64,000 nucleotides of DNA from Amphiscolops sp. MND2022. Taxonomy: Eukaryota. This document shows positions 7,940 to 64,000 of this stretch, piece after piece. The stretch lies in NCBI GenBank assembly GCA_964187785.1, contig OZ076413.1:54250001-54314000 (forward strand), read 5' to 3'. Made by a program: the position numbers and the translations under genes. Positions within the stretch are counted from its first letter, which is position 1. Each line of letters starts with the position of its first letter. The notes beneath the pieces are model-generated. The model made no database searches. It was not told the DNA's origin and saw only the letters and a program-made list of their open reading frames with translations.

Positions 7940-8091
7940 TGGTGACAGGAATTTTTTCGAATTTCTCACCGGACGAATCCCATCACGATCAGCTCCAAAT
8001 CAAACCTCTCGTGATCACAACGATCCCCTCGACACCACCCTGCCTGCAACAGAACCAACTACCGCAGTGGCCGTACAAGACCCAATCCTGA
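7240..8091 (+). pseudogene. gag: Gag N-terminus (LTR-encoded) of element A, truncated by internal deletion
   Basis: ORF KKQKKARKSRKQDMLPDIEN... crosses the LTR end and PBS (CDMVTG); no capsid or zinc-knuckle region follows and sequence jumps to the protease C-half at ~8150. Confidence 0.65.
7940..7950 (+). promoter_or_regulatory. Primer-binding site, tRNA-Leu-like
   Basis: TGGTGACAGGA directly after the LTR end; identical in element C; one mismatch to the canonical tRNA-Leu PBS TGGTGTCAGGA. Confidence 0.75.
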
Positions 8092-8099
8092 AATGGACC

Positions 8100-12408: not shown

Positions 12409-12840
12409 AAGGAAATTCTTTTAATGAAAACTATGCACAAGATTCTCCAAAAAGGGGGATGAAATTAACGTGCCCGAAATATCCCAAAAGCACGATAAGA
12501 AAGAAACTCTGAGCCCCAGAGGAGGGAAGTATATTCTCAGACCTAAACCTGATCAAAACAATTCAGAAGACTTCAGTTAGGAGGAAAAACTGAATTACGC
12601 CCAGAAGCGAGCGTTTTTCTTTCCTTTTATTTTTCACAGTTTCTTTTTGGTCCCATGACAAAATTTTTTGAATAAATAATGGGACACTGTGCTAAAACCC
12701 TTTTCAGGAATAATACGGGGACTGGTAAATTAGGAACAGAATGAATAGTACAAAATACAAACAACTTCAAAGAAAATTTATATACGATAGAAGAATCAAC
12801 AAGTTTACAGTCTGAATTGTACATAAGTACATATGTATAG

Positions 12841-15800
12841 TTATTCTTTAGAGGATCCAAGGTGAGAATCACTCGCGATTGATGAGGCGTTGGACCGCGA
12901 CCCTGTCCTCCTCCTTTTGGACTTACTAGGATATCTGACCTCGGCATCGTCTTCAACAGAAGAAACCTCAGAGCCCTCCATCCGAACCGTAGCCCCTTTT
13001 GAACTCGACTGTAGAGAACGATAAGAGATCAGCTGCAACTTGTAAATGCTGGAACGTCCAAAGTTGTCCCCACAAGTCCAGGGATCATAACTTGGACAAA
13101 TGCAGATTGTCCGAAGGAGGCCGATAGCAAAGCAAATTTGTCTAGATTGGAGTCAGTACATCAAGAAGATATGGAATTTAACACACTCGACATGTAGCTT
13201 TGGCTGCGTAAGATTACGTCAGTGAGCTGACTGTGGTGCCCAGTGGTTTTAATTTTCCCGATGGTCACGGCTAGGTACTGGGGACTGGTACTCGTTACGC
13301 ACAAGCAACACAACTTCAATAAATAGAGCAGGTGAATTTGGGTTTGCATGAATTCCAGTGTCGTCAGAAACTCAATCAATTCCGCGAGGAAACTCAGATA
13401 TGTCAAAATTGAATGGAAAAGTGGATCGGAGGAAATCAATTAATGACAGATACTCGTCTCTACAAGCAAGTTCAATTTCGGAAGTGACCAATGAACGCAA
13501 CATGAAGGTGGAATGAGAATGTCGAAGTGGCGGAGCGCTAACTCAGTCGGCCGTTTGAACAAGACGAGAGGATCAAAGGCAGCCAACCGTTTCACGATCT
13601 CAGTGTTGAGCCCAGATTGACGGAGGATCTCATCCAGAACGTACTGAACAAAGTAAAGCCCCTCAGTGACAAATGTAGTCTTAGTTTTACTTGCTGTCTT
13701 CAAAATTGCGGCCCGTTCGGGCTTCTTGCCCGAGTGGAGCCCCTCTGTTTTCTGTTTACTGGCGGTAGTTACCTTGTCAGTCAGGTTGAGAAGAACAAGG
13801 AGCTCATCTTCTGACAAGAAAGTTCCTTCACTTCTTCTGAATCCCAGTACCAGGAACCAGGAGTTTTCGAGTGGCACGGTATCCGGGAAGTGGCAGCGAG
13901 AGCAGAGTTTGTGGATGAATATACAGACTTCACCACACAGGAAGAAAAACCCATCTCGTCTGTTTTGCAAATTGACCACGAAACTAGACACGTCTACAAA
14001 CACAAAGAGGAAGCGTCCAGACTCAGGTACTTGAAGGATGCCCATGCATAACAAGTGATACTTACAATCACTCACGAAACGTTGGAAATTTTCTAGTTTC
14101 ACAACAAAGAACTCGTTGCAGATGAGGGACCATTCGATTCTCTGCACCTGAAACATCACAGAACCAAATCGACATCTGTGAGACAATGAGATTAAGGGGA
14201 ATAGTCCACAAAATGGCCCAATACTTAACCCTGGTGATTGAGGATGGGGAACAAGCTACTTACCAAAGGTCGTGCTCCTTGTCCCGCCTGCCTCTGAGCA
14301 TGACCAGACAAGTAGATCCGAGCGCTCTTCAAACGGCTGATGAGTTCTCGGCAGAGCATAAGCAGGGTTTTAACATCCAACTTGCTTGATGAAATTGCAT
14401 GAACCAAAAAATGGGAATGAGCCTAGTGTACTGGTAAAGACCAGAAGAAAATTTGTCCTGCGAGAGTTCAGGGGAGTCCAAAATCCAATTCTCAGTGAGG
14501 AAACCACCCAAGGACACCATCAGACCTTCGACGACTGAGCTGAAGTCGATCCTCGCAAAGACGCTGTAGCTGGGCTTATAGAGCATCCCGGCCAATGACA
14601 CTTGCTCGAAGCGGAAACAGCATTGAACGCCCTCAATTGTCCGCACCAAGTCCGCGGAACATCCGGAGACGGCAACGCTTCGGCATTGGAGAACACGGCT
14701 GGTATCAAGCGGGATAGAGACTCTATTTCGCCAGTCAGCTCCGAGGCGGGTAGACCACTGAGACTTTGCACAAGTCTGTCCCTTTCCAAAAACGGACAGA
14801 CATGAACCGGTTCCGGCCTTAGAACTCGAATTCGACAGAGAAGCATTGTTCTGCACTCACTTATTCTACTATGTCGTCGACGGCGCAGATGAAGAAATGT
14901 TGGAATATGGCCTGAAAAAATAACACTTGAACTTTCAGACTTACAAAATCAGAATAGTTGAGAAGGCCAATGGAAATTTGACCTAACAGGTTATCACGGA
15001 GTGTCGCTAGAATCCAATATAATGTTAAGAAAAAGAGGTATTTACCTTTAGCCGATCTTCACCTCAGTCAAAGTCACAGATGGTTGCCTGGAGATTGTTT
15101 TAGGAACCAATTGGTGACCACAAGTTTCGCAACAGAAGGAGGTTACCATGACTCTGGACGTAATCGCGCTACTAGACATAACTGAGTCTTGGCTCTGGAT
15201 GTTGGCGTCACCAAAGCTGTGGTACTGCCCTTGATAATCTTGTCAAAAAACGTAAACCTTCCCTCAATGTAGATTAGGGTTATGTAGAGGATCTGCTGGC
15301 CCAGAAATGAACGATCTGGTCCAACCGATCTTGGAGAAGCTTTCTTCTGGCAAGCTCGCTTCTGTTTTTTTCCATCTCACTGTACCTGTGTGACTCTTGC
15401 CCGCGTTCAGCAAGAAGCTGGCTCCTAAGCTCCAGGAGTATGCGTTCTTAACTGCTTGTCACAGCGAACTCTTATCCTCCTATCGTATCCTCGGGATCAG
15501 TTCCAGATGCGGCCATGAGGCCAGTGGCAGCAGCAGTTGTTCGTTTAAAGGACTCCCAAATCAATGCCATTTCTTCGGCACTGTCACAATCACCAAAGCT
15601 AGATGAGTCATTAGTCGGGTCTCCATGTCCGGTCACATCCACAATCTCCGATTCAGCATTCGCTTCGGTCCTGGTCTCATCGCCGCCTGAATCGCTATCA
15701 CTAGGTGGTCCAGGAGTCTGGGCCCTAGTTCGGCTTCTGAAATGTTCTGTCCGAGATGGAGCTGTTGTTGGCTTTCCACGTACTGCATCCAAAACCATCC

Positions 15801-18800
15801 GTTCCATCATGGCAGTAGTGGAACCACCATTATGGTAGTGAAGGAGTGGCTGACTGTCTTATATGTCAGAACGCGTAGCAGGTAAAACAGTTGTGGTTCC
15901 GTGAATGCAACGGTAGGATGTCCAAAGGGGAACCGGAAATGCGGAGCCTTGTCGAGGTAGTGTTTGAGGATGGCTCTACTACGGCCCGAAAGTTCCTGCC
16001 CTCTACTCGGTCCTGCGAAGGAACTTGAGCCAGGGTTTCCAGTCGGGTCGGCTAACTACACTCCAAAATCAGATTCGTTTCCCCCCTCTGTTACGGGACT
16101 CAGACCCCGTAACTATACTCAGTGTTAAGGGACCCTGCAGATAATATAGCCTGATATAGCCCGTCACTCGTCTTATCTCCTCCACTTTGAAGATGTTGGG
16201 GGTTTCGGTTTTTCGCACAAGGCACGAAGGGATATCGTACACACAGGAAGCAGCGTAATCTTCTGGTTGAAGAAAAGAGGCAACAGAGAGATCATGCCCT
16301 GTTTCAGGAGCGGTCAACAGTTCAGGGAGCTGAGTCCTCTCGACGGCTGTCAGACTTGCACTTGACGGGACTTCTTCGTCCTGGGAAGAGAAGTGCTAGA
16401 GCGTTGATCCCCTGGCAATCTGAAAGATACAGTGGGGTTGTCCAAATGGGTCGATTCTCCCTGACTCCGAACAAGATTTTCCCAATCCTTTTTATGCACA
16501 AAGGACGGATCCGACTCCATTCGTTGAACGACTTCTTCAACAAATGCAGTAACGTCTGTCACTGTTAGCACTAATCGGAGAACGAACTAGGGGTATTGGG
16601 GCGGTTCAGCAGATTTCTGAACAGAAGGTAGGATTTCTGCTCGAAGCGGAAACAGCATTGAACGCCCTCAATTGTCCGCACCAAGTCCGCGGAACATCCG
16701 GAGACGGCAACGCTTCGGCATTGGAGAACACGGCTGGTATCAAGCGGGATAGAGATTCAGTTTCGCCAGTCAGCTCCGAGGCGGGTAGACCACTAAGACT
16801 TTGCACAAGTCTGTCCCTTTCCAAAAACGGACAGACATGAACCGGTTCCGGCCTTAGAACTCGAATTCGACAGAGAAGCATTGTTCTGCACTCACTTATT
16901 CTACTATGTCGTCGAGGGCGCAGATGAAGAAATGTTGGAATATGGCCTGAAAAAATAACACTTGAACTTTCAGACTTACAAAATCAGAATAGTTGAGAAG
17001 GCCAATGGAAATTAGACCTAACAGGTTATCACGGAGTGTCGCTAGAATCCAATATAATGTTAAGAAAAAGAGGTATTTACCTTTAGCCGATCTTCACCCC
17101 AGTCAAAGTCACAGATGGTTGCCTGGAGATTGTTTTAGGAACCAATTGGTGACCACAAATTTCGCAACAGAAGGAGGTTACCATGACTCTGGACGTAATC
17201 GCGCTACTAGACATAGCTGAGTCTTGGCTCTGGATGTTGGCGTCACCAAAACTGTGGTACTGCCCTTGATAAATTTTCAAAAAACGTAAACCTTCCCTCA
17301 ATGTCGATTAGGGTTATGTAGAGGATCTGCTGGCCCAGAAATGAACGATCTGGTCCAACCGATCTTGGAGAAGAGTTCTTCTGGGAAGCTCGCTTCTGTT
17401 TTTTTCCATCTCACTGTACCTGTGTGACTCTTGCCCGCGTTCAGCAAGAAGCTGGCTCCTAAGCTCCAGGAGTGTGCCTTCTTAACTGCTTGTCACAGCG
17501 AACTCTTATCCTCCTATCGTATCCTCGGGATCAGTTCCAGATGCGGCCATGAGGCCAGTGGCAGCAGCAGTTGTTCGTTTAAAGGACTCCCAAATCAATG
17601 CCATTTCTTCGGCACTGTCACAATCACCAAAGCTAGATGAGTCATTAGTCGGGTCTCCATGTCCGGTCACATCCACAATCTCCGATTCAGCATTCGCTTC
17701 GGTCCTGGTCTCATCGCCGCCTGAATCGCTATCACTAGGTGGTCCAGGAGTCTGGGCCTAGTTCGGCTTCTGAAATGTTCTGTCCGAGATGGAGCTGTTG
17801 TTGGCTTTCCACGTACTGCATCCAAAACCATCCGTTCCATCATGGCAGTAGTGGAACCACCATTATGGTAGTGAAGGAGTGGCTGACTGTCTTATATGTC
17901 AGAACGCGTAGCAGGTAAAACAGTTGTGGTTCCGTGAATGCAACGGTAGGATGTCCAAAGTGTAACCGGAAATGCGGAGCCTTGTCGAGGTAGTGTTTGA
18001 GAATGGCTCTACTACGGCCCGAAAGTTCCTGCCCTCTACTCGGTCCTGCGAAGGAACTTGAGCCAGGGTTTCCAGTCGGGTCGGCTAACTACACTCCAAA
18101 ATCAGATTCATTTTCCCCCCTCTGTTACGGGAATCAGACCCCGTAACTATACTCAGTGTTAAGGGACCCTGCAGTTAAAATAGCCTGATATAGCCCGTCA
18201 CTCGTCTTATCTCCTTCACTTTGAAGATGTTGGGGGTTTCGGTTTTTCGCACAAGGCACGAAGGGATATCGTACACACAGGAAGCAGCGTAATCTTCTGG
18301 TTGAAGAAAAGAGGCAACAGACAGATCATGCCCTGTTTGAGGAGCGGTCAACAATTCAGGGAGCTGAGTCCCCTCGACGGCTGTCAGACTTGCACTTGAC
18401 GGGACTTCTTCGTCTCCCGGGAAGAGGAGTGCTAGAGCGTTGATCCCCTGGCAATCTGAAAGATACAGTGGGGTTGTCCAAATGGGTCGATTCTCCCTGA
18501 CTCCGAACAAGATTTTCCCAATCCTCTTTATGCACAAAGGACGGATCCGACTCCATTCGTTGAACGACTTCTTCAACAAATGCAGTAACGTCTGTCACTG
18601 TTAGCACTAATCGGAGAACGAACTAGGGGTATTGGGGTCGGTTCAGCAGATTTCTGAACAGAAGGTACGGCAGAAGTAGTGTTAATTGGGGAAAAAGGAG
18701 GTGGTGCACAGACTTTGCTTGAGTTAAGACTCATACTTGAGCCTGGTTCTGGTGTTTGCTCATTCGTTGTACTCTGTTTATCTAAACCGAAAGGAATGAA

Positions 18801-18833
18801 AATTGGCGGTATGCTTTCTTGAAAAAAATCCAT
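12841..18833 (-). pseudogene. Antisense cargo cassette of element A (degraded, hAT-transposase-like protein plus upstream low-complexity ORF)
   Basis: Chain of minus-strand ORF pieces; DYVQSHGNLLLLRNLW / CDFDWGEDRLK|AIFQHFF...FSVEFE / VILRSQSYM...SYDPW align by eye with the antisense protein of element C. Confidence 0.65.
14603..18667. repeat. Tandem duplication, ~2035-bp unit x2 (14603-16630; 16638-18667)
   Basis: Near-identical blocks with scattered substitutions; 7-nt junction ggatttc. Confidence 0.95.
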
Positions 18834-19873
18834 TTCACCGCGTTAAAAATCTTCCGGAAGTATCTCTTAAACTTGAACAAAAAACGTGAGAGCACGTGTC
18901 AATGGCAGAAACAGGAAGCGCGTAAGAACAATTTAATCTTGATAAAGTTAAACTAGTTCAAAATATGAAAATCCAGACCAACCTGAGCTTGATGACATTC
19001 TGCTACAATGTGGTCTGCTAGGAGACAGGCCTCGTAAGGACAATCGCAGTTTTGGAAAATGACCGGATTCGGCAGAAGAGAAGCAAAGCACTGGGTCAGT
19101 CCGAAAGGGGAGAAGAAGCAAGCAACAGGAGTTGTAGGCCAAGATGGTCTGGGTTAAATAGAATTGCAAATGTAATGAATAAGAGTGGAATTGGAATGTA
19201 ATAATCAATAAAGAAGGAGTTGGAGATCGTGACTGAGGAAAGTATCCAGGTTAATATTTCGTGGTTATTTACATATTTAGAAATGTGAATGGAGTCTGCC
19301 AGCGATATTTACATGATTATCTTCATTATTTACAGATTAGTTAGTTGAAGTTGATTACGGTCGTTTTACCCTTTTCTGTTTACCGTTTTGTTACGTTTGT
19401 CTGGTTAATTTTTAGTTAGAACTTTCACCATTTTAGATTATTTCAAGTTATCATTATCGCCAGTTTATAATTCATTTTTCCTTTTACCGATGAACAATTT
19501 TGGTTGACTGAAGCCATTTTGGGAGGAATAAGCGACGCTTGCCTTTAATTGCCTTCAAGCGACCCGTTAATTACCCACTTGAGACGAGTGTATTTGATAT
19601 CAACAACTCAAGTGCTGTTCACACCTCCTTAGATGATGGTGTTGATGAGGGGTGAACACCGAATTTCGAAGGACGACGACTGGTGGTGGAATCCCCTTGA
19701 AAAAGGTTATGCTGACTTAGGATAATTATCCGAAAGTTGTAACGCCAAATCGAGATTCTCGGGAAAAGTCCTAACTCGGCCTAAAAGGAGTCTACTGACA
19801 AATTCATTTTAATTTTGATTCTGCTGAAGACAAGTCGATACTCAATCCATCAAATTTGCTCTAAAAAATTTTC

Positions 19874-20651
19874 ATGCAGAAACTCAACCTCTCAAGGAAA
19901 CGGTTTGAAGTGGATGATGTCAGCTCTGACGCTTCCGAGGAATCAGTTTTATACATTTCTAGTGGGGAAGAAGATTTGTCTAATGAATGGGAGTCTGATT
20001 GCTCAACAGACACTGAAGAGATGGTAGCCCGTAACGAGAAAGAAGTAAGTTCGAGCCGATGATGATTGGCGGAAGAGTAATGATGACTAGTAGCATTGAG
20101 GAGGAAATGGTCGCGGGCCCAAGCTCGTCACTGCGTGGTCCGTCAATTACACCCAAATTCAACGCTACCTACTTTGACGAGAAACTTCGTTACGCCCCCC
20201 CCCCCCTGAAGGGTAATCTAAAGAGGAAAATAGAATTATGCAAACCCTTGCTCCTTGTCATAGATTCACCAATGTCTCCTCCGCCTAAAGAAAGAGGGCC
20301 CTCTCAAAAGACCCCCCTAATGCAACCAACTGAATCCGGATTTAGAGCTTCATATGACATTCAGAATACAAAGACGTAGGAGAACGTTCGCGAAGTGCGC
20401 TATGCGGAATGTACGGTTTGTGGTCGGTCTGTAGAAGCGATCAAAAAAGAAAGAGTGGCTTGGTTTACCCCAGGAATGAGCCGGAAAATACAACACGACT
20501 GAGACGAGAAGCCTTTGAGAATGGTCTAAACGCCAACTCCTTTCTTTTTCTTGCACCCGCAGTGGCGCAGGCTGCCGCCTGTGACGGGTCAATGATTACA
20601 GCAACAGCAAGAGGGCAAGACATTGCCCCAGGAACCCTCCCCACCTATTAG
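19874..20651 (+). pseudogene. 3' sense ORF of element A reading into the 3' LTR (frameshifted)
   Basis: Acidic/Ser-rich pieces 19874-20062, 20059-20379, 20409-20651 ending AVAQAAACDG...PGTLPTY* inside the LTR. Confidence 0.55.
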
Positions 20652-22280
20652 AAGTTAAAACTTCTTACCATTGATATCAGAAATATCTATCCTAATAATC
20701 CTTGATTAGTGCTATTTACAAGTTGCTATTATGAAATGTTAAAGTATCAGTCTATTAACGTTGCTAATTTGTTCAAAATGCTGTAAGTGTATTTGAATTG
20801 ATACCGAGCTGACTGATATGTAAAAGCTGACTGCAATGTAATACGGAAACGAGTTCAAATGTGTTTCCAGACTTTTACGGCGTCAACGCTCAACAATTCA
20901 TGTCAGCCAATCACATCTCTCTATCGGTGCTAAAATGTATTACCATCACTTGCCGGTTAAGGACGCTTGACCAATCTCAGCTTGTGCTTCATTCACTATT
21001 AGGCAAATGGCCGATTTCGGCCACGTGCAGTATTTAAATGCCTGAGAAGTTGTTGACTTATTAATGATGCCACTTATATGCGTAGTAATAGTACAGTAGT
21101 TACCTTTTTGAACAAAGGACATTATTGTTGTTGTTTGATGCAATTACGATTAGCTTGAAGTTATGAATGGAAATGCCAGTCTCTGGTCCCAGTCCAGCCT
21201 ATGATGAAAAGTTAATTTTACGTCCGGTGGACGTACTCGGCGTATTAAAATTAACTCACAAACAAGTAAATTGGAAACTTGTGGTAACCAGATGACTAGT
21301 CAAATTACGCGAGCTACCACGTGTCTGAAATATTGTTTACATAATTGGCATACTTTAATTGATGATGATGCTTTTATAAATGACATGCAAGGAATGATAC
21401 TTTCTCTAAAAATGTGTTTGAAGTTTACCAGTGACATTGTGACCTTGAAACCATTGATTATGAGGAAGAATTTTTGATCACGTGCCGTTTATGGAGCTTA
21501 TGCACATGAAATATGCATTGTTATATGAGTATAATGAATGTAAAGCGTGCAACTGTAATGCCTCAGAGAGGATAAATACCTGTCACGCTCTTAATGCAGA
21601 CACTTTTCTGTAAACCTTTGTTTGATACCAAACTTGTTCTGAACTTACCCAGAATAATTTTTCGATCAGAAGCAATTCAAATAATATTACTTGGACTTTT
21701 TTCATGCCTACTACTAGAAAGCGAAAGAAAGCGAGAAAGTCAAGAGAGCAAGATATGCTATCTGATATAGAAAACCTTGACATAATAATAGGAGGGAATA
21801 GCTTAGACAGAGATGAAAATATATCTAGCAGCTTAGGCAGGAGGCCTCCTGAAAGCCCGAGTTATGGAAATTTTTTGAACCAAAATGGTCAGTCACAATC
21901 TAGTTCTGGAGAAGCAGAGATTAGAAGGTATGCCCAAAATGGCAACAGCGCTAGAGAAGTTGATTCGAGTCGCGAGTATAACAGGTTATCAGGAGAGTAA
22001 AATGAAAAGTTTTCCCGGGAGATGGGAGATTTCATGAGCACTTTCAGTTCCCAAATCCAGAGAGCCATTAGTGAAGCAATTACTTACCAAATGCTGTCTC
22101 AGACTCAAGCAATTCTGAGATCTGGGTAAGGACAAATGCCGGAAAGGAGATGAGAAATTCCGGCAAGAGGAAAGGGACTTAGTTCTGAAGAAGCCTTGAA
22201 CCGCAGATTCTGGAGTAGCTCTAGAGACGAGTGTAACAGAGACTCCAATATAAATGAAATATTAGACAACACTTGTGACA
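20563..22280 (+). repeat. 3' LTR of element A
   Basis: Colinear with 6302-7939, ends ACTTGTGACA with no PBS; carries the MPTTRKRKKARKSRE ORF. Confidence 0.85.
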
Positions 22281-49831: not shown

Positions 49832-51764
49832 TGTCACAGCCCCAGCTAAGCTGTGAGAGTTGCCACGTAGTAAGCGCAGTCTACGAAGAAGGAAATTGGG
49901 ATTAGAATGAAAGAGAGAAAAGGCAAGTGAAATAACTGATATACGACTAATATGAATATATAGTTATTGGTTAAAATTATTTCGGGGCTAAAATTATATT
50001 TATATAAGTATATATATTAATACTTACATACAAGAACATATAAATACTCACCCAGCGTGCTAACAAGTGCAGTTACTAATATTAAAACAGTGCTATGTAA
50101 CTAATAATAATCAAATCACACCGCTTAGCAAGCGACCTGAGGTATTTATGGCGGAACTGCGGCCTGGCAGCCGGCCTGAGAATTGTGCTGTGAAGCGCCG
50201 GCCTGGCGATTGGCCTGAAATCAAATACGCTGTGCGCTGCTAACTAACAGCGTTGTGCATTATTATTGAACGAATAATAATTCACTAGAGCATTTCGCAT
50301 ACAAATTGAACGATGCTATGAATATAAATGTGCAAGCGATTGAATGAGAGCAACAATCGACTGAAAGTTGAAGACCACGGCCTGAGACACGGCCTGAAAA
50401 TAAAACGAACAGAAATCCATTTTACATGGAAAATGATGATGCTAACAATGATTTCCTATCTTTCCCAATGAAACCACGAACCAATACTCATGATCTGAGA
50501 CGGTAATCGTTAATTTGCATGTTTTATATAACTGTTCTGTTCATGTAGCCATATTTGAATTCCAAACGCACCAAGCCGCGGCCCAGGCCTCGGCCTGAGA
50601 CCAAAATCCCCGACCACCTAAATTTGGCAAATAACCGGTGATATGTATTATTTTTCGGACCAAATCTCCATCCTGTTGAATTTACCTGATGTAGACAGTG
50701 CATTAAAATCATCCATCTCATGTAAAACTTTATATGTTGTTATTTAACCTTTAATATTGAAACACGCATGTTCCCTAAAAATCTCAGGACGCAGCCTGGG
50801 ATTAAGGATTATTCATTTGGGATAATCAATGTCTCAACGCCTTTACCAGGCGACTTTACCAATTAATTTGCAGCTTTGTTGATATAATCGTTATGTTGAG
50901 CAGTATCTGAACTAATTAATCTAAGGTGGAGATTTTTCATTTCCCACTTAGAATATTGTTGAAGCTTTTCCCATCTTTTCGTCCTTTCGGCGTGAAGTAT
51001 TGAATCACCTGTGCTTTTTACCGCCGAATTCAGCTTCGGCGTCATGAAGAGGCGGGAATTGGAGGAGAAGAGAAGCGGAGTCGCAACTCAGACAGGAAGT
51101 GGACGCGTGCTTTCCTCGGAAAGCATGAACAAGCTGAGAGTCTGAGTTCGACAAAGCGGAACTGAACTTCCGGTTTCCCTGCCTCGGAAGGACGCCGGGC
51201 TGAAGGAAGCGTGAAAGCGTGATGGGTTTTTTCCCGCTCACGCAAGTGCGGAAAGTATATTTGTTGAAAATTTTTAAATAATTTCAATTGAAAATTGTTA
51301 ATCTCACTCGAAAACAACCTTGTTCTTTTAATCTTTGAAATCAATAAACCTTGAAACTTCCAACTTTCTCTACTTAACAGTTTAAGTCTGCAAGATTCAA
51401 AAGTCAAGAATGCCTGAAAGATCTTCGAAAAGGAAAGCAAGGAGAGATTCAGTATCTAGCTCCATCGGTGAACCAGAAACATCTAGCCTAAGGACAGAGA
51501 ACAACCCTAGTGTTTCCGACGAGAATTTTTCGGAACTGTCAGAGAAGATAGAAAAATCTGTCAACCGTCGAATCAAGGATGCTGAAGTAGGACAAAGAGA
51601 AATATTGAGGATGATCGAAAACTTATCATCTACAATCGATACCTTTTCAGACAAGTCCTCTTCGAACGCGAACCATAAAACGATCAATCTTGATCCGACC
51701 GAACCTGGTCCATCCGCACAAAGAGAAGATATTTACGAGTTGACCCAAAGTCAGGGTCAACACA
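49832..51764 (+). repeat. 5' LTR of element C (~1.93 kb)
   Basis: TG...CA ends; first ~430 bp match 63573-64000; followed by the PBS. Confidence 0.85.
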
Positions 51765-51777
51765 TGGTGACAGGAGT
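51765..51777 (+). promoter_or_regulatory. Primer-binding site, tRNA-Leu-like
   Basis: TGGTGACAGGAGT. Confidence 0.8.
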
Positions 51778-52864
51778 ATCGCCCCAGACGGAAATACCGC
51801 CCCGATCATCAAGCTTGCCGCCCCCAATCAGAAATACCCGGACCACATAGTCGACAAACTGCTCGAATCACTTCGGAACGTCACACAACAGAACATCGGA
51901 CTCCCCAGACTACCGAAAGTGTTGTAAACAACCATGCCCACGTTCAACGGGCGAAATGACAAATTCGAACAATTCGAAGACCTTTTCATGACCAGCCTCA
52001 TGGTAAATCCCAACATCTCCGAGGAGGAGCAAATCCATTACTTCCACTCCCTACTCAGGGACGAAGCCCTCCAATTATACCGCAACATGACTGACACAAA
52101 CCATGCCAGGTTGGAAGACATCTTCGCCACATTAAGGCGCAGATACGTACGCCCACAATCCATCGCAACAGCCCGATGCAAATGGGAGCAACTCTACTTC
52201 GACCCCGACAAACGTTCCAAGACTTTTTGGAACAGTACCAGAAATTGGCACAAGAGGCATACGGAGAAGACGCCCCAAAATTTATAGAAACATCCTTCTA
52301 TGCCAAAATGCCGACCCATTTGAAACGAGTCCTTAACCAAGCCAGATTAGAAACGGAAACCTACGACATGACGGATCAACACTTAGAGAGGGAAATCGAA
52401 CCAAATGGACTGTTAGCTCCCAACGAGACTAACATAACAGGAGTACACCAAATCGATGTACAAGAAATACAACAAGCCCCAAACCCTCCCAAACCATCAG
52501 GCCCATGCTATGGCTGCGGAAATCCCGGCCACATTATCAAAAACTGCCGAAAGACAGCCCGCGAAGCCCGCAATCGAGGCAACAGAGCACCCAACAAAAT
52601 GATTGACCCATGTGAGACATGTGGTAAGAAGAGTCACACAACGCAAGACTGCTATTCAGGCGCCAATTGGGCGAATAGACCACAGTGGTGGAAAACACCC
52701 AGGACTACGCCCCCAAACAGTATCCCGATAACACCACAACAAGGTCAGTACGTAGAAGAAAACCCATCAGTAACCCAACCCCAAATCCAAAACCAGACAA
52801 ATGGCCAAATGGGCTATCAACCGCCCCCTCCAGTGACAACGCAATCCCAGGAACCAAATCAGTC

Positions 52865-52871
52865 AAAAAAC
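52865..52871 (+). other. -1 ribosomal frameshift slippery site A AAA AAC
   Basis: In gag phase directly before the gag TAA; the -1 frame stays open for ~370 codons. Confidence 0.75.
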
Positions 52872-55800
52872 TAATTTCGCCACATCTTCAGTTTGGGAAG
52901 GAGGTCGACACCCGACACTTCACAACATCGGAACCCCCAAACTCTTACTACCATGAAGAAATCACCGTGCGCTGTGAACAACCATCTCTCGACTGGCAGC
53001 GAAGATGGCAAATCTACAGGCTCCATAAGTACAACCGTCAAAATACGACCAAAAAAGACTACCCACAATGGTACCTTAACAACCCGAATGACTACGACAC
53101 TCCAAAACGACCACTACCAGAAAGCACTACCCCCCCTGAAACCTATATCCACGACCCCGACTTCAATTGTGACCCATACCATAATCCCCAACTTTACGAC
53201 AGAGAATCACTAACCTTCAGACAGAAAGAGTGCACGCCATTTGAGGAATACATCAGAAAAACCGGGATGAATATCTCCACGGAACCACAGCATAGACCGA
53301 AAACCATCCAACCTGTACCAGATTACGACCAAGACGCAGAACGCGTCACAGAAATTTTAGTCGACGACACGACTAATAAACCAAAGTCCATACTCAAAAA
53401 ACAGGGACCTCAAATATCGACCCCTCAATCACCACCCAAAGACCAACCAGTCCATCCCATCAGAGCTGGAATCTTACGATCCCCAGCAATGGACGTGGCA
53501 CCTGACAGCCACCAACACAAAAACATTACCTGCAGGACCACGACTGAAGCCGTGGACCTGGCCCAATCTACAACCAACACAGAGATAACCCTCTCCAAAC
53601 CAAAAACGAGGAGAATCAAGCGGTCTCTACTCCTAGAGCCCCTCCCCTTCGGTGAGACATCGATCTCACCCTCCCCCCTCAACAGTCAGTCGGAAGATGA
53701 AGTTGAAGGCACTCAACTCATCATGGCTGACGAAACCAACATGCAGCCTGAATCCCAAGCAGGTGTTACAAACAACACACCTCAACAGAACAGAGCAAGG
53801 TCCTACCTCTCAGAACAGACTGCAGAATACCAGAGGACAAACCATACGAATGGGGAAACACCTACCCCCCCCCCCCTCCCAAAAGGACAGGCAGTCCGAG
53901 GAAGAGTTCGAGGACCCTCGACCCACAGAGACAGCCGCAACCAACATGCAATCTGGATCCCCCACAGGTGCTGTAAATGACACACCGACACAGGACGAAC
54001 CCCAGTCCTACCCCACGGCCCAGATTGCAGAATACCTCACAAAAGACCCCGTGACCAATGAGCAATGCATCCCAATCTTCTCAGTAGTAACGATAAAGAA
54101 GAAGAAGAAAATGCTATTTGCTCCAATGGACTTCCAGGACTTGAACCTCGACGCCCTCAAAGACTCCGGCGCCCTTGTAAACTGTACTTCAGAAACAGAT
54201 TACAAAAAAATCTCCCAAATGTCTCCCGAGGACATAGTCAAGGAATTAGACCCACCCCCCTTCAAACTCCAAGTCGCAAACGGCGACATTGAAACCCCTA
54301 CAAAGACAATCATCCTCCAATTCGAGATCGGTGATTGGAACTTTAAAGAAACCTTCATCGTCGCAAAACGTCTCACAGGCCCAATACTCGGCCTCACTTT
54401 CCTCAAGAACAATAGCGCCATCCTGGACGTGAGCCAAGGACTGCTCCACTTCCCCCATCTAACATATTCGATCGAAACTGACGAATATACCCGTAACAGA
54501 AGGCTATACAAAGTCCAAATCAAAAACTCACTCACCATCCCACCTGAGACAACCCAGACAATCACTGCCTACACGGACATATCATCTACCATCGACACAA
54601 CCGGTGTCATCAACCCAGCAACAAACCATTGCAGCAGTGACCCCTGGTCGTAGCCAGCTCAATATCAACTGCCACGAACCGAAAGATTGACGTCAGAGTA
54701 ACGAATACGACTCCCACACCCTACACCATTAAAAAGAACACAACGATCGCAGAATTCAAAATTATGTCGCCAGAGGAAGCCAAAGAACTCAGACCACTCA
54801 ACACAACAGCACTCAAAGTGCTCACTGGAGACGATTCGGAAGACGCAATAGTCTATTTAAATGAACTCCTAAAAACTTCCGATAAACCATCCAATAACCA
54901 AAACTTCTGGTTCTCCACGCCAGACAACCCCGGGGACCCAAAGACCCACACGCCGATCCAGAGCCGAATCGTGCGAGAAATTAAAGACCTCGAGGAGATC
55001 CAGAAACTAAACCCCAACAACAGCACCGAAGAACGAGAGGCATTCCTCAAGAATTTCCAATGGGATGACACACAACTATCAGAAGAAGAGAAAAAAGACA
55101 TCGAAGAAATACTCATAGAGTACAACGACATTTTCGCCAGGCACAGACTGGATATTCGAATCAACCACGATTTCAAAATCAAACTCACGCCGAAGACTGA
55201 CGAACCAATCTACTCACAGAGCCTGCCATGCCCCATTAACCTAAAAGAAGCTTTGACAGTTGAACTGGCATTGACGCACTACTTCGGGATCATAACAACC
55301 CTCCCATTCAGCAAACATGCCAGCCCAATTTTCGCCAGCGCAAACCAAACGGACGACTACGTCTACTAATGGACCTCAGAAAGATCAATAATTTGATCTC
55401 CGATGATTACATCAACAATAATCATCCAGTCAGCACGCTAACTGATGCTGCGCAACACCTCGCTGGCAAGAAGTTATTCTGTGAGCTTGATTGTTCACAA
55501 GCTTACCACGTACTGCAGATGGCAGACGAGAAGTTCGTCCAACTTCTAGCCTTCAACTTCGCCAGCAGAACATTTGCGTACCTCAGACTGGCCCAAGGAC
55601 TGAGTCGATCACTGTCGTCCTTCTCAAGTTTCATGAGAGAATATCTGGACAAGGCCATAAAGGCGGACAAATGCGCCCAATACGTGGATGACATTGGAAT
55701 CGCCACGAACACAACCGAACAGTTGAAGAACAACCTGAGAGAGGTCTTCCAATGCATCCGCGCAGCAGGACTCCGGCTTACTATGGCCAAATGCCAGTTC

Positions 55801-58300
55801 GGCGCCAAGAAAGTCGAATTCCTTGGGCGAACAAACTCTCCATCCGGCGTGGCACCCCAGAGTCACAAAATCCAGAAGTACTTGCAAACGCTCAAATTCC
55901 CCCGAACAAAGAGAGGCCTCCAAAGATACATCGGATTCGTAAACTACTACAGGAACTACATTCCCCGACTATCAGAGAAGATTGCTCCGTTCCATGAACT
56001 CATAAAATCCGACAAGCCAGCGAAAATTGACCAGGAACTCAGATCCAACTTCGAAGCTATCAACAAGTCATTAGACAACGCGTGTGGACTTTGGCTCAAA
56101 CAGCCTCTGCCAAACCGGCAGTACGTACTGATGACCGACGCCAATTTCAAAAGCGCCGGATACGCCCTAATGACTGAGGAGGACCCCAAACAGAAACTCA
56201 CCTCCACCAGGAAACCGTATGCTCCAGTAGCATTTGGATCCAAAACCTTCTCCCCATCACAATTGAAAATGTCAATTTATGCTAAGGAGTTTTTGGCCAT
56301 CTACTTTGCCTTCATGGAGTATAGCCATATCCTATGGGGGTCCACCAAACCAACAATTGTACTAACGGACAACAAGTCGGTCACGAGGTTTTTCCAAACC
56401 AAGATGATCCCGCCCTCCCTGTGGAATGCCTGTGATTTTGTACTCCAATTTCATTTCAAGATCGCCCATGTACCAGGACGGATGAACACGGCGGCCGACT
56501 TCCTCTCCCGACTGGATATCAGCCCCAAAGAGAAAGTCCTTCTCCAAATCAGAGAAGATATCCAAACCACACCCATCAGGTAACCATCCAATCCTCCGAC
56601 ATTCACGAGGAAGACCAGGTTTACTTCTTGCCGGAAGACGATTCCGAGACAGAAGAAGACATCTGGGAGCGAAAACAACCAGCACGAAAGAAAATATACA
56701 GCCCCCAGGACCATCAAACTGACCCCCCAATTGCTACAGATGAAACAAACTCTCAAACGGAGAACTTGCCATTAGTCTGCAACAATATCCAAGACCCAGA
56801 GCAAACACAGAGGCGCCAACTACACAACGAAACAAGCTTCCCACGCAGTTTGAGACTGCACCAGGACCAGGATCCCGTCCTCAGAAACCTTAAATTAAAA
56901 ATATTAAAAGAGTCATACGACACCCAGCTCCTCAACGACGACCCTAGAGCAACAAAGTACCTAACCCAAGAAGATAGAATCATCATAAAAGACGGGCTAC
57001 TGTACAGACAATACTTCGGAGACAACGGGAAAGTGAAATACTTACAGGTGTTACTTCCCCGACAGTTGGTCGATGAATTCATTCAGAACCACCATGGGAA
57101 GTACGGAAAACACCCCGGCATAGCTAAAACTATCCAACAATGCCGCGAAAAGTACTACTTCCCAGGACTCGCCGCCAGAATAGCCACCCACGTCTCACTA
57201 TGTCAACAATGTGCACAAACAAAGAGAACACCCAACAATAACATCACACCTCCCCTAATCGACATGTCAAAAGTAGCAATGGGACCTGAAGACGCACTCC
57301 AAATGGATATAGTCCCATTTGACGACCCATCAGGAGGATATACGGCAGTTATCACAGCGATGGACGTCTTTTCCGATATCTATTCGCCTACAGCGTCACT
57401 AGAATCGACACCAGAACCGTCACCCGAGTCCTTACAGACATCATCACCAGACACTGCTATTTACCCACAACAATCATTACAGATAAAGGGTCCCAATTCA
57501 TATCGGAAGCTATGCAGCAAACGACTGCAGCTTTGGGCATCCAATTGAAACACGCTACAACAAAGCACGCCCAATGATAGGCATCCTGGAACTGACTCAC
57601 GCCTCCCTGAAAGAAAGCCTGAAAATTATGAAAGGAGAAAGGCGTACAATGTGGCACCAATTCTTACCAATGGCGGTACTGAACTACAATACTTCATACC
57701 ATACGTCCCTAGGCTGCGAACCCAGCAGAGTGTTCCACGGGCGAGTCCCCTACAATGTACTCGACCTGAAATACGGGCTCAAACCACAACACCCCACCCC
57801 AGTCAACAGTGAAATTGTTGAAGGAGTACTCCGACAGACAAAAGAAATCGTCGAGCAGACACAACAATCACTGATGCAGGCTTACGTTTGTCATAAACAC
57901 TAATATGACAAGAAGGCCTCAGCTAACCCCTTGGTAGTAAACGACTACTGCTATGCATTGCATCCAAAGGCGCATAGCCAATCAACAAAACTGCCGTTTA
58001 GAGACTACCTTTGGACGGGACCATATATCGTGGTCAAAACATTACCAAACAACAATTATCTAGTTCGAGAACTTCAAACAAACTCCACACAAATCCTACA
58101 TAGAATCAGGCTCCGACCATTTACAAGTACTTATAAATTGCCTGATATCTCCACACCCCCCAAAGATTTCCAGCAGGACAACGAAGTTGCCATACAACAT
58201 GACGACCTATACGCCCTAGGCAAGATCTCTACCAAGCAAACCCTAACCACCCCGAAGATAGCCAATCACCCGAACCTAAATTGACACCACCAACCCCAGA
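52872..58300 (+). pseudogene. pol: Pol: spacer, protease, RT, RNase H, integrase (several indels)
   Basis: DSGA; LDCSQAYH; YVDDIG; TDANFKSAGY; HGKYGKH...CQQC; QMDIVPF. Confidence 0.95.
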
Positions 58301-58973
58301 AATGGCTGCAGAATCCACTCACCCCAACCCAATGCATGAACCAGAAGACATTAGCAGTCACCCGGAAGCCCAGGCAGACGACCCAACTCTGGACACTGCA
58401 GACAACCCTGAAGATTCCACCCCACTCCTAAGTCCCACGAAAATTGAAATACAATCTCCGCCAAAACCCGACCTCAAATTGGAAGCCAGATTTCGCTTAC
58501 TACAACGCTATAGAGGTCAATTCAAACAACTCGATAATCCTGAATCACGGGCCAGACGACAGCCCAGAAATACAAGTTTTAGCGGACCTCGGCCCTGACG
58601 GTGGCCTGAGATCAGGAAATTGAAAAGGCCCCAGGCGCTAACCTGGACAGCTATACTGTGACTCATATTCAATTCTCCTCAACTTATAATGGCTCTTTTT
58701 TCTCTCTTACACTCTACTACTCTACAACTTGGATGAAAACAACACAGAGGCTAAATACTAAATTGACTGGCCCAACGGACCATTGAGCTGCTTCAAATTT
58801 TTTCTTTGCTCCATAATACCAGAGCTTTCTTATCTCGATTTTCTATCTATTTTATTTTCTAAAACGGAACCGAATAGTGGAACCCTATAACATCAGAACA
58901 ATGGGCACACAATAAAGAGAAACAACAAAGAAAATAAATCAAAGCAGTCCATCAACGGGCAGTTTCAAATGAT

Positions 58974-61536
58974 TCAATAAGACTTCTCTTGACGAGATCC
59001 TTTCCTCGACACCGTTCTCTTCTTTTGCACCGACGAACTCGTACAGGCCTGCACTGGTTCGGATGCCTCAACTTCAGAAACAGTCTCAGCAGCAGACGTA
59101 GTACCAGACGGCACACCACGGGATGATCGCCCACCAGTCATCCGAGATCTCCACCCCTCAACCTGACCAGTGTAGTAGGCGGTGTAACAGCGAAACAAAC
59201 TCTCAAAAACCTCCGTCCAAGCATGACGACTGATATCCACGAACGGATCGAAGGAGGTGCGCGCCAAGAACTGATGCCCCACAGGCAAATTCACTTTTAA
59301 CTCCTCCAAACACTCCACGGTCAGTAAATCATTCGAGACAAACTTGGGATGGAGAACAAACGACTGCACCGCACTGATCCCTGAACGGATAACAGCTTTA
59401 GGAAGACCAACTCCACTACTTGAAATATCCACCGGAGGCATGGTGTTTGGCCCAGAACACACCATCACTCGCAACAGACGAACAACTTGTTTGACGTAGC
59501 CCCGGCACTGATAAACATCACTAGCTTCCAAAAATCCGAATACATCACAAATTTGTTCAGGATCAGAAGACCGTTGACGTAGGTCTACAACCAGAGACTT
59601 GAACTCATTTACAGAGGCCTCCCGGTCAACTCCACTCAGGAAGCTAGCACCATGTAAACAGCTCACCAGATCTTGAATCAAATCTACCACATACTCAGCA
59701 TCTCCACACAGCAGCATATCTACACTCAAACAGCTGAGCAAACGGGCCACACAGGAATTACAATAAGCTGAAGATCCAAGCCGTTTCAACAACTCAAGCA
59801 AAGACCCTTGACATTCACGCAGGAAGGTGCGACGAGGAGCGTCATCAAAACCCCGCAACGCCGTCATGATGCTGGGCTCAGACTGCAAACACTCCCCAGC
59901 GGTAACATTTGCCCAATTGGTCGGAGGCTGATCGATGTACTCAAACCAAATATCCACAGACGGTAACTGACTAACTTTCTTCACCTTGCCCAAAAGACTC
60001 CAGTAAAAAAAGCAAAAGTCAGTAAAATTGCGGCACCCGTAATCCCGAACCTTCGGATCCTGCTGCCTCCTGAAGTTCGAACTGTAGCACAGCAACACAA
60101 CGTGCAAAAAAGCAAAACGAGGCAAGACCAAACGATCACCACACAGAAGAGAATCGAGATCCACAACATTCCCTGACTTCTTCATCAATAGCACATTGTT
60201 CGATAAGCACAGCTTCACGTCAGCCCAATTATCCAGAAGTTCCTGCAGAACCCCACACAAAGACGCAAAGGGCACGACTCCGGTTTCCAAGCATAGACGC
60301 AATTGAGGCAGATTTAAAAAACCACGCCTGGTGACGCACCCGCTTGAAACGCTGAACCAAATACTCCAGAGCTGAGAACGGATCCACAGACCCCACACAC
60401 ACAATACTGGACTCATTGATTAGACGCCGCAACATATCGGGATCGAAAGCCATAGCAACAACAGGCACAGGACGACCAACAGTCTGACACCAGTCGATAT
60501 ACCCATTAAATAGAACAAGTGGGCAGTTCAAAATTGAAACAGGGCTACGAATCGTCGACACAAGGGACAGAACACGTGCTAGACACCGCATCTCAGCCTC
60601 ACAGGATGTCTCACCATGAGGTTCTTCAAAGAGGTGTACCTCGCGAAGACAGTCATCGGGGCAGCATCGGACGATACACTTCACACCGGAGTATGAAGAC
60701 CGCAGCGCCAAGCTAAACGGGCCATCCCCAAGCCATGACTTCACACGACGAAGAACACGCGGATAGAGAGTCAGCACAAGGACCACCAATGTCTCCGTCT
60801 TACTCCATGTAACTGAAGCGTATGGACTCTCGACTGGCAAAGTAGTCCGCAACTGGTTCCACAGCCGACGCAAGAATAACTGGGACCCTCGACTTTTCAA
60901 CAGTTCCAACAAACATCCCACAAGAGTCGTTGGGGGCACATTGGATGGGACGCCAACCAGTGCATCCACTTCGTCTTCCAGAAACTTGTTCATCCGCCCC
61001 AATAACACAGGAGGAGTTTCTTCAATCTCGGCACGTTGTTCAGCAGTCAGGTCAGCAACCCGGATGGGATCAAACTTCACCGTATAAATCACATCCTCGT
61101 GATCGTAACGGTACCGACGACCTTTGAGGTAGTGACCCTTGCACTTGAAATGCCGCCAGATGCCTCTTGCACCCCGAGACAGAAAGGAAACATCTTTCTT
61201 GCAAATCGAACAGTTGAACCCATTCTGACTCTTGTCATCACGTCGACTGACAAACAACCGGGGAATCGCATGGTCACTCATGGCTTTTGTCAACACATGA
61301 CGCTCCGTCTGCCGTTTTGCCCGTTCTTCATCCCGAGCCAACAGTTTCTCCTTCTTCGCCTCTAGAGGATCCAACACCCGTCCAGGGTTATCAGCGTCAA
61401 TGCCTTTCCCTTTCAGGAGCTGAGACAACTCCTCAAATTCAAAACACAACAACAAGTAGTCAAACAAATGACAGCATACGACAACACTCCATACAAATAC
61501 CCACGAGATAGAAGCAAACAAAACAAAACAACCCAA
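58974..61536 (-). CDS. Antisense zinc-finger, hAT-transposase-like protein (~850 aa; one apparent +1 T indel at ~60316)
   Basis: Two long overlapping ORFs (435 and 480 aa) that fuse if the T6 run is T5; CSIC-x16-H-x5-H finger at 61132-61212. Confidence 0.7.
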
Positions 61537-61594
61537 AAGAAACCATCGGAAAAGTCAAGAAAGCCCAGCAACAGAACAACAACAATACACTTAC

Positions 61595-62830
61595 GCTTAG
61601 CCAGGTTTTTAGTTTCTTTAAGAGACTCAGTTCGTTCAGCTCGGGCAGCGCTTCGGGCCAGCAACACACACTGCGCCGCGGACATCATCATTGGTGAACC
61701 AGGAGGAACTGCATCCAGACCAGCTGACAACAAACGAGCAAGTTTCACAACACTACAAACTGACGCTAAATCGCACCATGAGCAAAAGTACACAACACGA
61801 AGAGGGCATAAAGAGCGGAATGAAAATGACAACTCAATGTACCATTTTCCCAGTCATTGTACACAACTGAGGCCCCACCCCAACAGCAACTCGTCCGTGC
61901 TTAGTCCTGCCACGCTTGGACGACACACCGGGTAGCTCCGAGACAGCATCACTGACAGAGGCAGGAGTATCACCCGCCACCTCACACACAAATTTATCAC
62001 TGTCTTCGGAAGACTCAATTCCCGGCCCAGGCACTGCTCCAGCAACTATAATACAACCAAGATATGAACAACAGGAAATGCAGAATAAGTGTCCCTACAA
62101 GCAATACATGAACCCAATTCATTGTACATGACACCCCTAGAAAGAGAATGAGAAAGAATACCTACTTTCAAGAGTCCGAGAAGCAGAAATCATGAGGGGC
62201 ACATGGTCATCTCCCGAACTGTCATGAGCAGAGGGCGGCCTGGTAATCGAACCAGAAATGACATCCGCCAATCGAACCCGTTTCGCAGACTGCACACTGG
62301 TAGTTGACAACATTCGACCAGCCCTTGCCTTCTTCTTACTTTGGACCTCGTACTACGGATTGGGGCATAATCCTCATCAGATCCATCATCGGTAGCTACA
62401 GAAAGTAGATGAATAGAACGCGTTCAAAGAAACCTAGAAAAAGCTGGCCACCTATTAATTTCTAGAAAAGATTACCTTTCTTTCGTGCCAAGTAGTCAAT
62501 GTCATGCCGGTCATCACTTGTGCCAGAATGGAAAGACCCAGTTGCGATAACACTCTCATGCTCTCCGCTACTGTCATCACTGGAATTTGCTTTGTCACTA
62601 AAGCCTGGCACACGTCCCTCTGCTTGCTCAACCGACACACCAGCTTCCTCCTGAACGCCGCCACCACTCGCCTCTTCATTTTCAACATCACCCCCACATC
62701 CACTAGTTTTTTCCTCTCCCCGGACAACTGACTCAACCACAGACTCAACTTCCGCTCCACTCTCAACTAACTCTGCTTCTCGACTGCGGTGCAACAATGC
62801 ACTATCTTCTTCAGTGGAACACATAATCAA
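61595..62830 (-). CDS. Putative upstream exons or ORFs of the antisense cassette (acidic, low complexity)
   Basis: ORFs 62462-62950, 61834-62034 and 61413-61832 separated by GT...AG-bounded GT-rich tracts. Confidence 0.45.
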
Positions 62831-63049
62831 TTCTCTGGAAATAACAAACCATGAAACATAAAAAGAAGATGTGGCGTAAAACCAATGAAAAATCAATACT
62901 AGAAGTTTTCTATTATATAACGAGAGTTGTTCAGTCTGCCAGCTGAACAATTCAAAAGCTCAACACAAATGGTGTGAACAGATTTTCAGGACGCAGCTTA
63001 GTCAGTTATATTCCTAATCAACTGACAATCAGCTTGCCAATCAAATAAA

Positions 63050-63646
63050 ATGTACAATTCCAACTCTAGCGATCAAACGAATGAAGACGTCTTTATACTC
63101 GAACGAGATCAGCAAGCACATCCAAGACAAAGGCCCATTACACCGCCGCCTAATTATAATATTATCAATCCAATGCAGCTTACTATTACTTATGAAATAA
63201 TTAAAACGGAAGATCTACCCGTCGTCCTTGTCCATGAACAATCACTCGAGATTGCGATTAGCGCTGAAAACGAACAAGGAGTAATACGAAGGTTCACTAC
63301 AGATAATCCGGGTATCCCAGATGACGAGTTCGTGAGCCCAGTCCGACCGTTCAACCACGAAGGCCGACACAGCCCTGACTATATTTTTGACAGCCCTATC
63401 AGCTCATACAGCAGCTCGGAAGGCTACTGGTCAGGAAGCGACTGGGACACAGATTCCTCATGGAGATCCTACGACTCAATGCGCGACGATCTACCCACTT
63501 TGTTCGACACTCCAACCCGGTCGATATTCCAATTCCTCCTTCCAGATATGACAGCGCATCGAAGCCGAGGACTGTCACAGCCCCAGCTAAGCTGTGAGAG
63601 TTGCCACGTAGTAAGCGCAGTCTACGAAGAAGGAAATTGGGATTAG
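63050..63646 (+). CDS. 3' sense ORF of element C (198 aa), last ~24 codons inside the 3' LTR
   Basis: Intact ATG-to-stop ORF, acidic/Ser/Pro-rich, crosses the LTR start at GGA CTG TCA CAG. Confidence 0.65.
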   Translation: MYNSNSSDQTNEDVFILERDQQAHPRQRPITPPPNYNIINPMQLTITYEIIKTEDLPVVLVHEQSLEIAISAENEQGVIRRFTTDNPGIPDDEFVSPVRPFNHEGRHSPDYIFDSPISSYSSSEGYWSGSDWDTDSSWRSYDSMRDDLPTLFDTPTRSIFQFLLPDMTAHRSRGLSQPQLSCESCHVVSAVYEEGNWD

Positions 63647-64000
63647 AAGGAAAGAGAGAAAAGGCAAGTGAAATAACTGATATACGACTAATACGAATAT
63701 ATAATTATTGTTTAAAATTATTTCGGAGCTAAAATTATATTTATATAAGTATATATATATAATAATACTTACATACAAAAACATATAAATACTCACCCAG
63801 CGTGCTAACAAGTGCAGTTAATATTAATAATACAGTGCTATGTAACTAATAATAATCAAATCACACCGCTTAGCAAGCGACCTGAGGTATTTATGGCGGA
63901 ACTGCGGCCTGGCAGCCGGCATGAGAATTGTGCTGTGAAGCGCCGGCCTGGCGAGTGGCCTGAAATCAAATACGCTGTGCGCTGCTACCTAACAGCGTTG
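63573..64000 (+). repeat. 3' LTR of element C (partial)
   Basis: Matches 49832 onward. Confidence 0.92.

Follow-up and report, generated by a model that had tools for sequence, protein, structure and literature searches.

The 64,000-nucleotide stretch of DNA analysed here (the window: positions 54,250,001 to 54,314,000 of contig OZ076413.1, forward strand, in the 1.07-Gb assembly GCA_964187785.1 of Amphiscolops sp. MND2022) carries a full-length Ty3/gypsy long terminal repeat (LTR) retrotransposon, which runs from 49832 to beyond the window end. On the minus strand of this element, placed between pol and the 3' LTR, lies an accessory gene (the cassette). This five-exon antisense gene probably descends from a hAT DNA transposase and is predicted to have lost the residues needed for cutting; its product would now act in the nucleus, binding DNA to regulate the element that carries it. 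One kind of mobile element is thereby likely to have retained the enzyme of another as a DNA-binding helper, a Class I element rather than the host keeping a Class II enzyme. The available text of PMC7264820 treats the origin and function of Ty3/gypsy antisense accessory open reading frames (ORFs) as a standing puzzle, and the cassette family provides such an ORF with a traceable origin.

Comparison among its copies indicates that the antisense gene is very probably spliced from five coding exons (Table 1), the modal lengths of which are 349, 231, 204, 129 and 2465 nt (about 1,125 codons in total). These are separated by four GT-AG introns, all in phase 1 and containing 44-54% T. Two sets of copies were compared: a close set of 30, comprising the window copy and 29 copies at 83-95% identity, from which the modal lengths are taken, and a divergent set of 33, comprising 21 loci of divergent subfamilies (about 62-82% protein identity in exon 5) and 12 loci of a clade at 45-51%. 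Matches to the cassette in this genome numbered at least 41 in a DNA search and at least 113, 51, 104 and 100 in protein searches with four types of query.

A preliminary description of the window had already proposed minus-strand introns at 62475-62396 and 62161-62046, along with a GTAAGT donor at 61594 joined to CTGAAAG near 61412. Every splice-site motif that it quoted is present in the sequence, and its 80-nt first intron as well as the donor at 61594 agree with the gene model. For the second intron, the acceptor at 62046 stands while the donor has to be moved by four bases. Both 62165 and 62161 read GT in 30/30 close copies; however, the modal length of exon 2 is a multiple of three (231 nt) with 62165 alone, and the equivalent of this donor yields an open, in-phase solution in 14 of the 19 divergent near-clade loci with anchors. 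The candidate 62161, which breaks the phase, was rejected. The candidate acceptor near 61412 was rejected as well, since alignment across families places CTGAAAG within coding sequence; the true acceptor is 61441-61440, and it is because this site is broken in the window copy that a downstream AAG had been chosen instead. The intron at 61842-61724 had been missed altogether. The remark that not all frames resolve cleanly was apt, because the window copy carries three one-base frameshifts, one each in exons 2, 3 and 5, at which it differs from all 29 other close copies, in addition to the broken acceptor. For the same reasons, the window copy is a pseudogenic version of a working gene. Of the 30 close copies, 14 combine the complete set of GT-AG pairs with open, in-phase exons 1-4, and six are open over the whole gene.

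Table 1. Coordinates of the antisense gene, its internal motifs and the carrier element, numbered along the window.
Feature	Position	Strand	Remarks
Coding exon 1	62476..62824	-	349 nt; ATG at 62824; acidic, serine-rich
Intron 1	62396..62475	-	80 nt; phase 1
Coding exon 2	62166..62395	-	private frameshift near 62344 in window copy
Intron 2	62046..62165	-	120 nt; phase 1; donor 62165
Coding exon 3	61843..62045	-	private frameshift near 61874 in window copy
Intron 3	61724..61842	-	119 nt; phase 1
Coding exon 4	61595..61723	-	129 nt
Intron 4	61440..61594	-	155 nt; phase 1; acceptor 61441-61440 broken in window copy
Coding exon 5	58974..61439	-	about 820 codons; zinc finger and predicted hAT fold; private frameshift near 60321
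Zinc finger C-x2-C ... H-x5-H	61132..61212	-	in exon 5; ligands kept in 22-23 of 23 aligned relatives
Predicted 5'-untranslated 3' splice site	62835..62836	-	T-rich YAG just upstream of ATG
Stem-loop	62465-62434 (loop 62450-62444)	-	in intron 1; loop nearly fixed, stem clade-specific
ACGCGT palindrome	62423-62418	-	in intron 1; also in 10/12 distant loci; kept in all three clades
5' LTR	49832..51764	+	about 1.93 kb; 96% identical to 3' LTR; TGG resembling a primer-binding site directly after
gag-pol	51386..58598	+	gag, zinc knuckle, protease, reverse transcriptase, RNase H, integrase (Pfam and ORFs)
Non-coding block	62865..62960	.	86-96% identity between subfamilies; between antisense gene and sense ORF3
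Sense ORF3	63047..63646	+	199 codons from ATG; enters 3' LTR; divergent from antisense gene
3' LTR start	63573..64000	+	extends 1511 bases past window

Among the close copies, the donor of intron 3 reads GT in 29/30 and its acceptor AG in 30/30, while the acceptor of intron 4 is canonical in 28/30. Such conservation is weak evidence in itself, since common descent has likewise preserved numerous other GT and AG dinucleotides, and the divergent families therefore carry the argument. Donors 1, 3 and 4 were located in 31, 31 and 32 of the 33 divergent loci, and intron 2 is in phase in 24 of the 31 with anchors. Acceptor 3 is YAG in 32/33 (22 TAG, 10 CAG), none of these 32 having an interrupted exon 4, and acceptor 4 is likewise YAG in 32/33 (27 TAG, 5 CAG). 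The conservation of splice sites across copies, which the preliminary description had named as a check, is thus seen over a wide range of divergence. Furthermore, the T-rich YAG just upstream of the ATG reads AG in 29/30 close copies, and since this pattern of acceptor and ATG recurs in 31/33 divergent loci, the window lineage probably has a further, non-coding 5' exon besides the five coding ones.

The pattern of change within the gene points in the same direction. Counted from ATG to stop, 14 indel sites are shared (listed from the close-copy alignment with three window-private sites left out), and 12 of them fall in introns, which make up 12% of the sequence (binomial p 9e-10). Across nine subfamily representatives, identity in the exons follows codon periodicity, with 0.41-0.46 at third positions and 0.67-0.92 at first and second positions (0.79/0.92/0.46 at codon positions 1/2/3 in exon 4), whereas introns 2-4 lie at 0.37-0.51 without such periodicity. 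Ratios of non-synonymous to synonymous substitution (dN/dS) are 0.18-0.28 for exons 1-4 (three pairs) and 0.09-0.11 for exon 5 (two pairs; a third, at 0.46, was set aside as that copy is frameshifted). Purifying selection acts on all five exons. Conserved GT-AG borders, compatible phases, T-rich introns that absorb indels and selected exons are together those of a spliceosomal multi-exon gene. It could be argued that the upstream segments remain unspliced, that the long last ORF alone is translated and that the GT and AG motifs are incidental, as in some copies intron 4 continues the frame of exon 5 without a stop (open frames of more than 900 codons). Nevertheless, the codon periodicity of exons 1-4 and its absence from introns 2-4, together with the clustering of indels in introns, make this very improbable, and so does the homology across clades, which begins exactly at the intron-4 acceptor, a site whose position and phase agree among the three clades.

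The hAT connection is provided by exon 5. Its zinc finger, which we take to be of the BED type, conserves its C2H2 ligands as well as a W close to the first H; it aligns weakly to the finger of host hAT proteins and has no Pfam BED match. An AlphaFold2 model of exon 5 built from 72 relatives reached a predicted local distance difference test (pLDDT) score of 86 and a predicted template-modelling score (pTM) of 0.72, and ranks 1-9 of the Foldseek search with this model are all Hermes, with a best E of 3e-4. In the VIA comparison with Hermes, Z was 13.9 and the root-mean-square deviation 5.3 over 401 aligned residues; among 48,161 chains Hermes was the only one with Z of at least 8, followed by ISCth4 at 6.5, with Tn5 and RAG lower. 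The predicted model remotely resembles Hermes in its RNase H core with helical insertion, and an N-terminal C2H2 finger, a predicted RNase H-like sheet and a large helical insertion are likewise features of hAT transposases (Hermes and those of the host). The named neighbours in the ESM Atlas, namely ZBED5/FAM200/GTF2IRD2 and hAT clusters at 0.87-0.90, point weakly in the same direction. Exon 5 is hence predicted, with good though not full confidence, to adopt a hAT fold.

Several observations weigh against reading the cassette as a spliced gene of hAT origin. The evidence for splicing comes entirely from sequence comparison; a donor for the 5'-untranslated acceptor conserved in all families was not found, nor was a conserved AATAAA after the stop (the signal is present in the window copy and in 4 of the 32 other loci with a located stop). 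As regards the fold, a true hAT of this genome gave a Z of 32.4 against Hermes as a control, and because the cassette reaches only 13.9, the link to hAT is remote; a Z of 13-14 is also near the range about which the tool warns for helical proteins. The three best ESM Atlas matches are unnamed clusters. Nothing meaningful was obtained with Pfam (including Dimer_Tnp_hAT) on the cassette proteins, sequence searches of the Protein Data Bank (PDB) with the cassette protein gave no match, and HHalign against six host hATs returned a probability of 0.1% with the finger alone aligned. Furthermore, the mapping of the catalytic residues onto exon 5 follows the order of secondary structure and not a residue-level superposition, and in the distant clades an acid stands at or beside the first site of the catalytic DDE triad.

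With that mapping, the invariant acids of the six host hATs (D175, D242 and E577) correspond to exon-5 positions 247, 305 and 685, none of which holds a conserved acid; in the distant clades the second is a glycine in 8/8 aligned sequences, and no acidic column is conserved after exon-5 residue 632. By this secondary-structure order, neither the DDE triad nor the CxxH motif of hAT transposases was found. The cassette protein is thus predicted to be a hAT derivative without catalytic activity; although its predicted architecture is that of a hAT transposase, it cannot be counted among the hAT transposases proper, having no conserved DDE, no CxxH and no sequence-profile similarity. Its identity to them is about 10%, and it differs from them also in travelling within a retroelement. 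A pair of terminal inverted repeats (TIRs) joining the cassette ends was not seen among the 25 longest of 106 inverted pairs, although old remnants could be lost. The genome also contains several hAT families (L113-L120) whose transposase frames are long and open and whose DDE motifs are complete; the cassette showed no detectable sequence relation to any of them.

The cassette could, on another account, be a passenger, that is, a hAT nested in one ancestral copy which is functionless or still self-mobile. In its favour, hAT elements are numerous in the host genome (150 scored matches) and the cassette borders are sharp. Such a history is largely refuted by purifying selection, since dN/dS of 0.09-0.28 and codon periodicity persist across families with saturated silent sites, and the conserved triad and the terminal repeats of a self-mobile element are missing from the positions and inverted pairs covered above; it is the least probable of the accounts considered.

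The gene has a fixed place in its carrier. Within the 42 loci fetched with long flanks, out of several hundred genome matches, the cassette is antisense to the integrase in 30/30 loci and antisense to both reverse transcriptase and integrase in 12/12 more distant loci (reverse transcriptase 66-70% identical). This bears on the view that the cassette originated as a host gene, domesticated in the manner of ZBED/ZNF862/FAM200 and taken up as DNA together with its introns. Domesticated genes of this type are often without catalysis, and the Atlas neighbours include the domesticated ZBED5/FAM200/GTF2IRD2 clusters. However, all 42 loci lie inside Ty3/gypsy elements and no named homologue appears among the protein matches listed, all of which are unnamed ENA records, several of them 99-100% identical to this genome; a capture of this kind is accordingly improbable, although a single-copy host parent may exist among the several hundred matches, of which these 42 were covered. 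For another of these records, P0024, the best match in this genome is only 47-53%, and no relatives of the cassette were confirmed in metagenome or viral contigs. The preliminary description had spoken of a host-like spliced gene with an acidic N-terminus inside a retroelement. The spliced, acidic antisense gene is upheld by the comparative evidence and by the composition of exon 1 (24% D+E, 16% S), whereas the host-like character is not, given the hAT fold and the position antisense to integrase in 42/42 loci.

Co-descent with the element is deep. Three clades each form one side of a branch in both trees, with supports of 98/98, 94/92 and 100/99 for integrase, where the bootstrap had not settled, and of 90, 74 and 100 for the cassette, where the tree was a quick one (one of the 30 loci, without integrase, was left out). 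In three of ten pairs, chosen for comparison after the trees had been seen, the flanks are mostly 93-100% identical while the cassette is only 53-77% identical, from the block near 62900 to about 58750. Judging from these alignments, the cassette is exchanged between near-identical backbones within clades. The main rival to a regulatory role holds that the hAT-derived protein guides integration by anchoring the integrase complex on chromatin or a DNA motif, without any role in transcription. It shares the evidence of fold and selection, a finger and a hAT body suit DNA binding, and the deep co-descent with integrase is in its favour; nevertheless, cassettes 53-77% identical on near-identical pol backbones argue against a tight, co-evolved contact with integrase, and guidance of integration is therefore regarded as unlikely, though less so than capture of a host gene.

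A DNA-binding regulator is preferred because of the finger, the acidic N-terminus, a divergence faster than that of pol and the free exchange between backbones. Under this preferred reading, an intron-containing hAT gene would have inserted backwards into an ancestral Ty3/gypsy element. Its introns would outlast each round of reverse transcription, as the genomic RNA is the plus strand, in which the spliceosome would ignore minus-strand introns; an insertion in the sense direction would have lost them. The transposon ends and catalysis would then have decayed, with the finger and body retained under selection, and the cassette may move between backbones via template switching at conserved flanks. 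Contact with element DNA would be made by the finger and the hAT body, and the acidic N-terminus may recruit host factors. That the protein serves to keep the element transcribed or unsilenced, as against other accessory roles, can be advanced tentatively, at slightly less than even confidence. Going further, the hAT may have been domesticated as a swappable, intron-containing antisense specificity module that binds the DNA of its own element against silencing and is traded in an arms race, the three 3'-most introns having been lost via the element's own reverse transcriptase; this fuller scenario is possible but rather doubtful. In it, the module would bind at candidate sites in intron 1 (its conserved ACGCGT and hairpin) or in the conserved block between the genes.

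Additional introns are present in the most distant clade, where three more cut the exon-5 region. The first lies after the finger region (12 loci, donor located in 10) and its junction is colinear with the uninterrupted sequence of the window lineage; the second and third flank a small exon (six loci). In one element (L072, G000:C11:32274500-32283000) the last exon is tandemly duplicated, and comparable close pairs are found in further families.

Antisense ORFs in this position have been described before, and what appears new here are the conserved introns and the traceable hAT origin. The cassette has the features of an aORF-3R antisense accessory gene, a class of antisense ORFs between pol and the 3' LTR that includes gene23 of maize Grande as well as ORFs of rice RIRE2, Silene Retand and Botrytis Boty; these share the place and orientation of the cassette, occur in most copies and are conserved, according to the available text of PMC7264820. 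In the same text, gene23 is driven by a promoter of its own and encodes a nuclear product, and the origin and function of these aORFs are given as unknown. It reports no clear similarity to other elements and merely suggests a search for spliced antisense transcripts, whereas in the cassette four introns are conserved and the predicted fold can be traced to hAT. TRP28 of Retand (Transposase_28, PF04195) is likewise antisense, lineage-wide, predicted to bind DNA and proposed as a regulator in the available text of PMC11963269. Unlike the cassette, however, it is a short flowering-plant domain, the word "intron" is absent from the main text of that paper, and PF04195 had no Pfam match in the window or the cassette proteins.

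Domesticated hAT proteins provide a second comparison. SLEEPER/DAYSLEEPER, as covered in the available text of PMC3499209, and ZBED/FAM200/GTF2IRD2 have a BED finger and a hAT body, are nuclear and probably DNA-binding, and are without hAT flanking repeats, traits that the cassette would share; they serve the host at fixed loci, whereas the cassette is retained by another mobile element in hundreds of copies. As a model of the role, VANC of the Mutator-like VANDAL transposons is an anti-silencing accessory factor that is borne by a transposon and derived from a captured protein; it belongs to a plant DNA transposon and has a MAIN-like fold, and the likeness is one of role, with no homology claimed (PMC13547354, available text). 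The extra ORFs of rotifer LTR elements are a partial parallel (PMC5408684, available text). In the literature searched, mostly titles and the starts of abstracts, nothing was found that describes an LTR element with an intron-containing antisense gene of hAT origin.

Apart from the coding sequence, intron 1 is itself conserved, with an identity of 0.81-0.86 among the nine subfamily representatives, above that of the exons. Its stem-loop shows changes on both sides of the stem at 2/10 pairs in 18 near sequences and at 2/16 pairs in nine far sequences, these sequences having been selected by the stem-loop and palindrome motifs themselves. The folding energy is not significant (z of -0.9 to 1.1 in six sequences, both strands), and Rfam gave no match above threshold for the hairpin. 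Owing to this selection by motif, the z values and the Rfam result, the hairpin and palindrome are classed only as a conserved cis-element, which could be a signal on the genomic RNA, a signal on the pre-mRNA or a DNA site.

The non-coding block between the antisense gene and sense ORF3 (62960-62865 in antisense order) holds a short hairpin, a TATA-like word and another fixed motif, and is flanked by the two divergent genes. Its function being read from position and content, it is a possible bidirectional promoter and a possible left border, or crossover point, of the exchanged cassette. Sense ORF3 is acidic and present in 29/30 loci at 35-77% identity; searches of Pfam and the Atlas gave no match for it. 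Strong donor-like words stand on the minus strand in the LTR at 63772 and 63796, and GTAAGT near 63772 is present in 5/7 anchored near-clade representatives and 0/6 far ones. Were they to serve as donors, antisense transcription would begin inside the LTR, and from the 5' LTR it would extend into host DNA.

The carrier element has direct LTRs with TG...CA ends and a 5-bp target duplication at its borders, and its gag is followed by protease, reverse transcriptase, RNase H and integrase domains in the order of Ty3/gypsy (Pfam). Its gag-pol is frameshifted in the window copy, and the gag ORF (51386-51850, plus strand) begins within the 1.93-kb 5' LTR and reads through the LTR end. A second, decayed LTR element occupies positions 6300-22150 of the window, with repeats at 6302-7806 and 20563-22147 (82-92% identical), integrase at 10949-12408 and a 2-kb internal tandem duplication at 14603-18637; its minus-strand ORFs at 13440-14948 gave no match to the cassette proteins tried.

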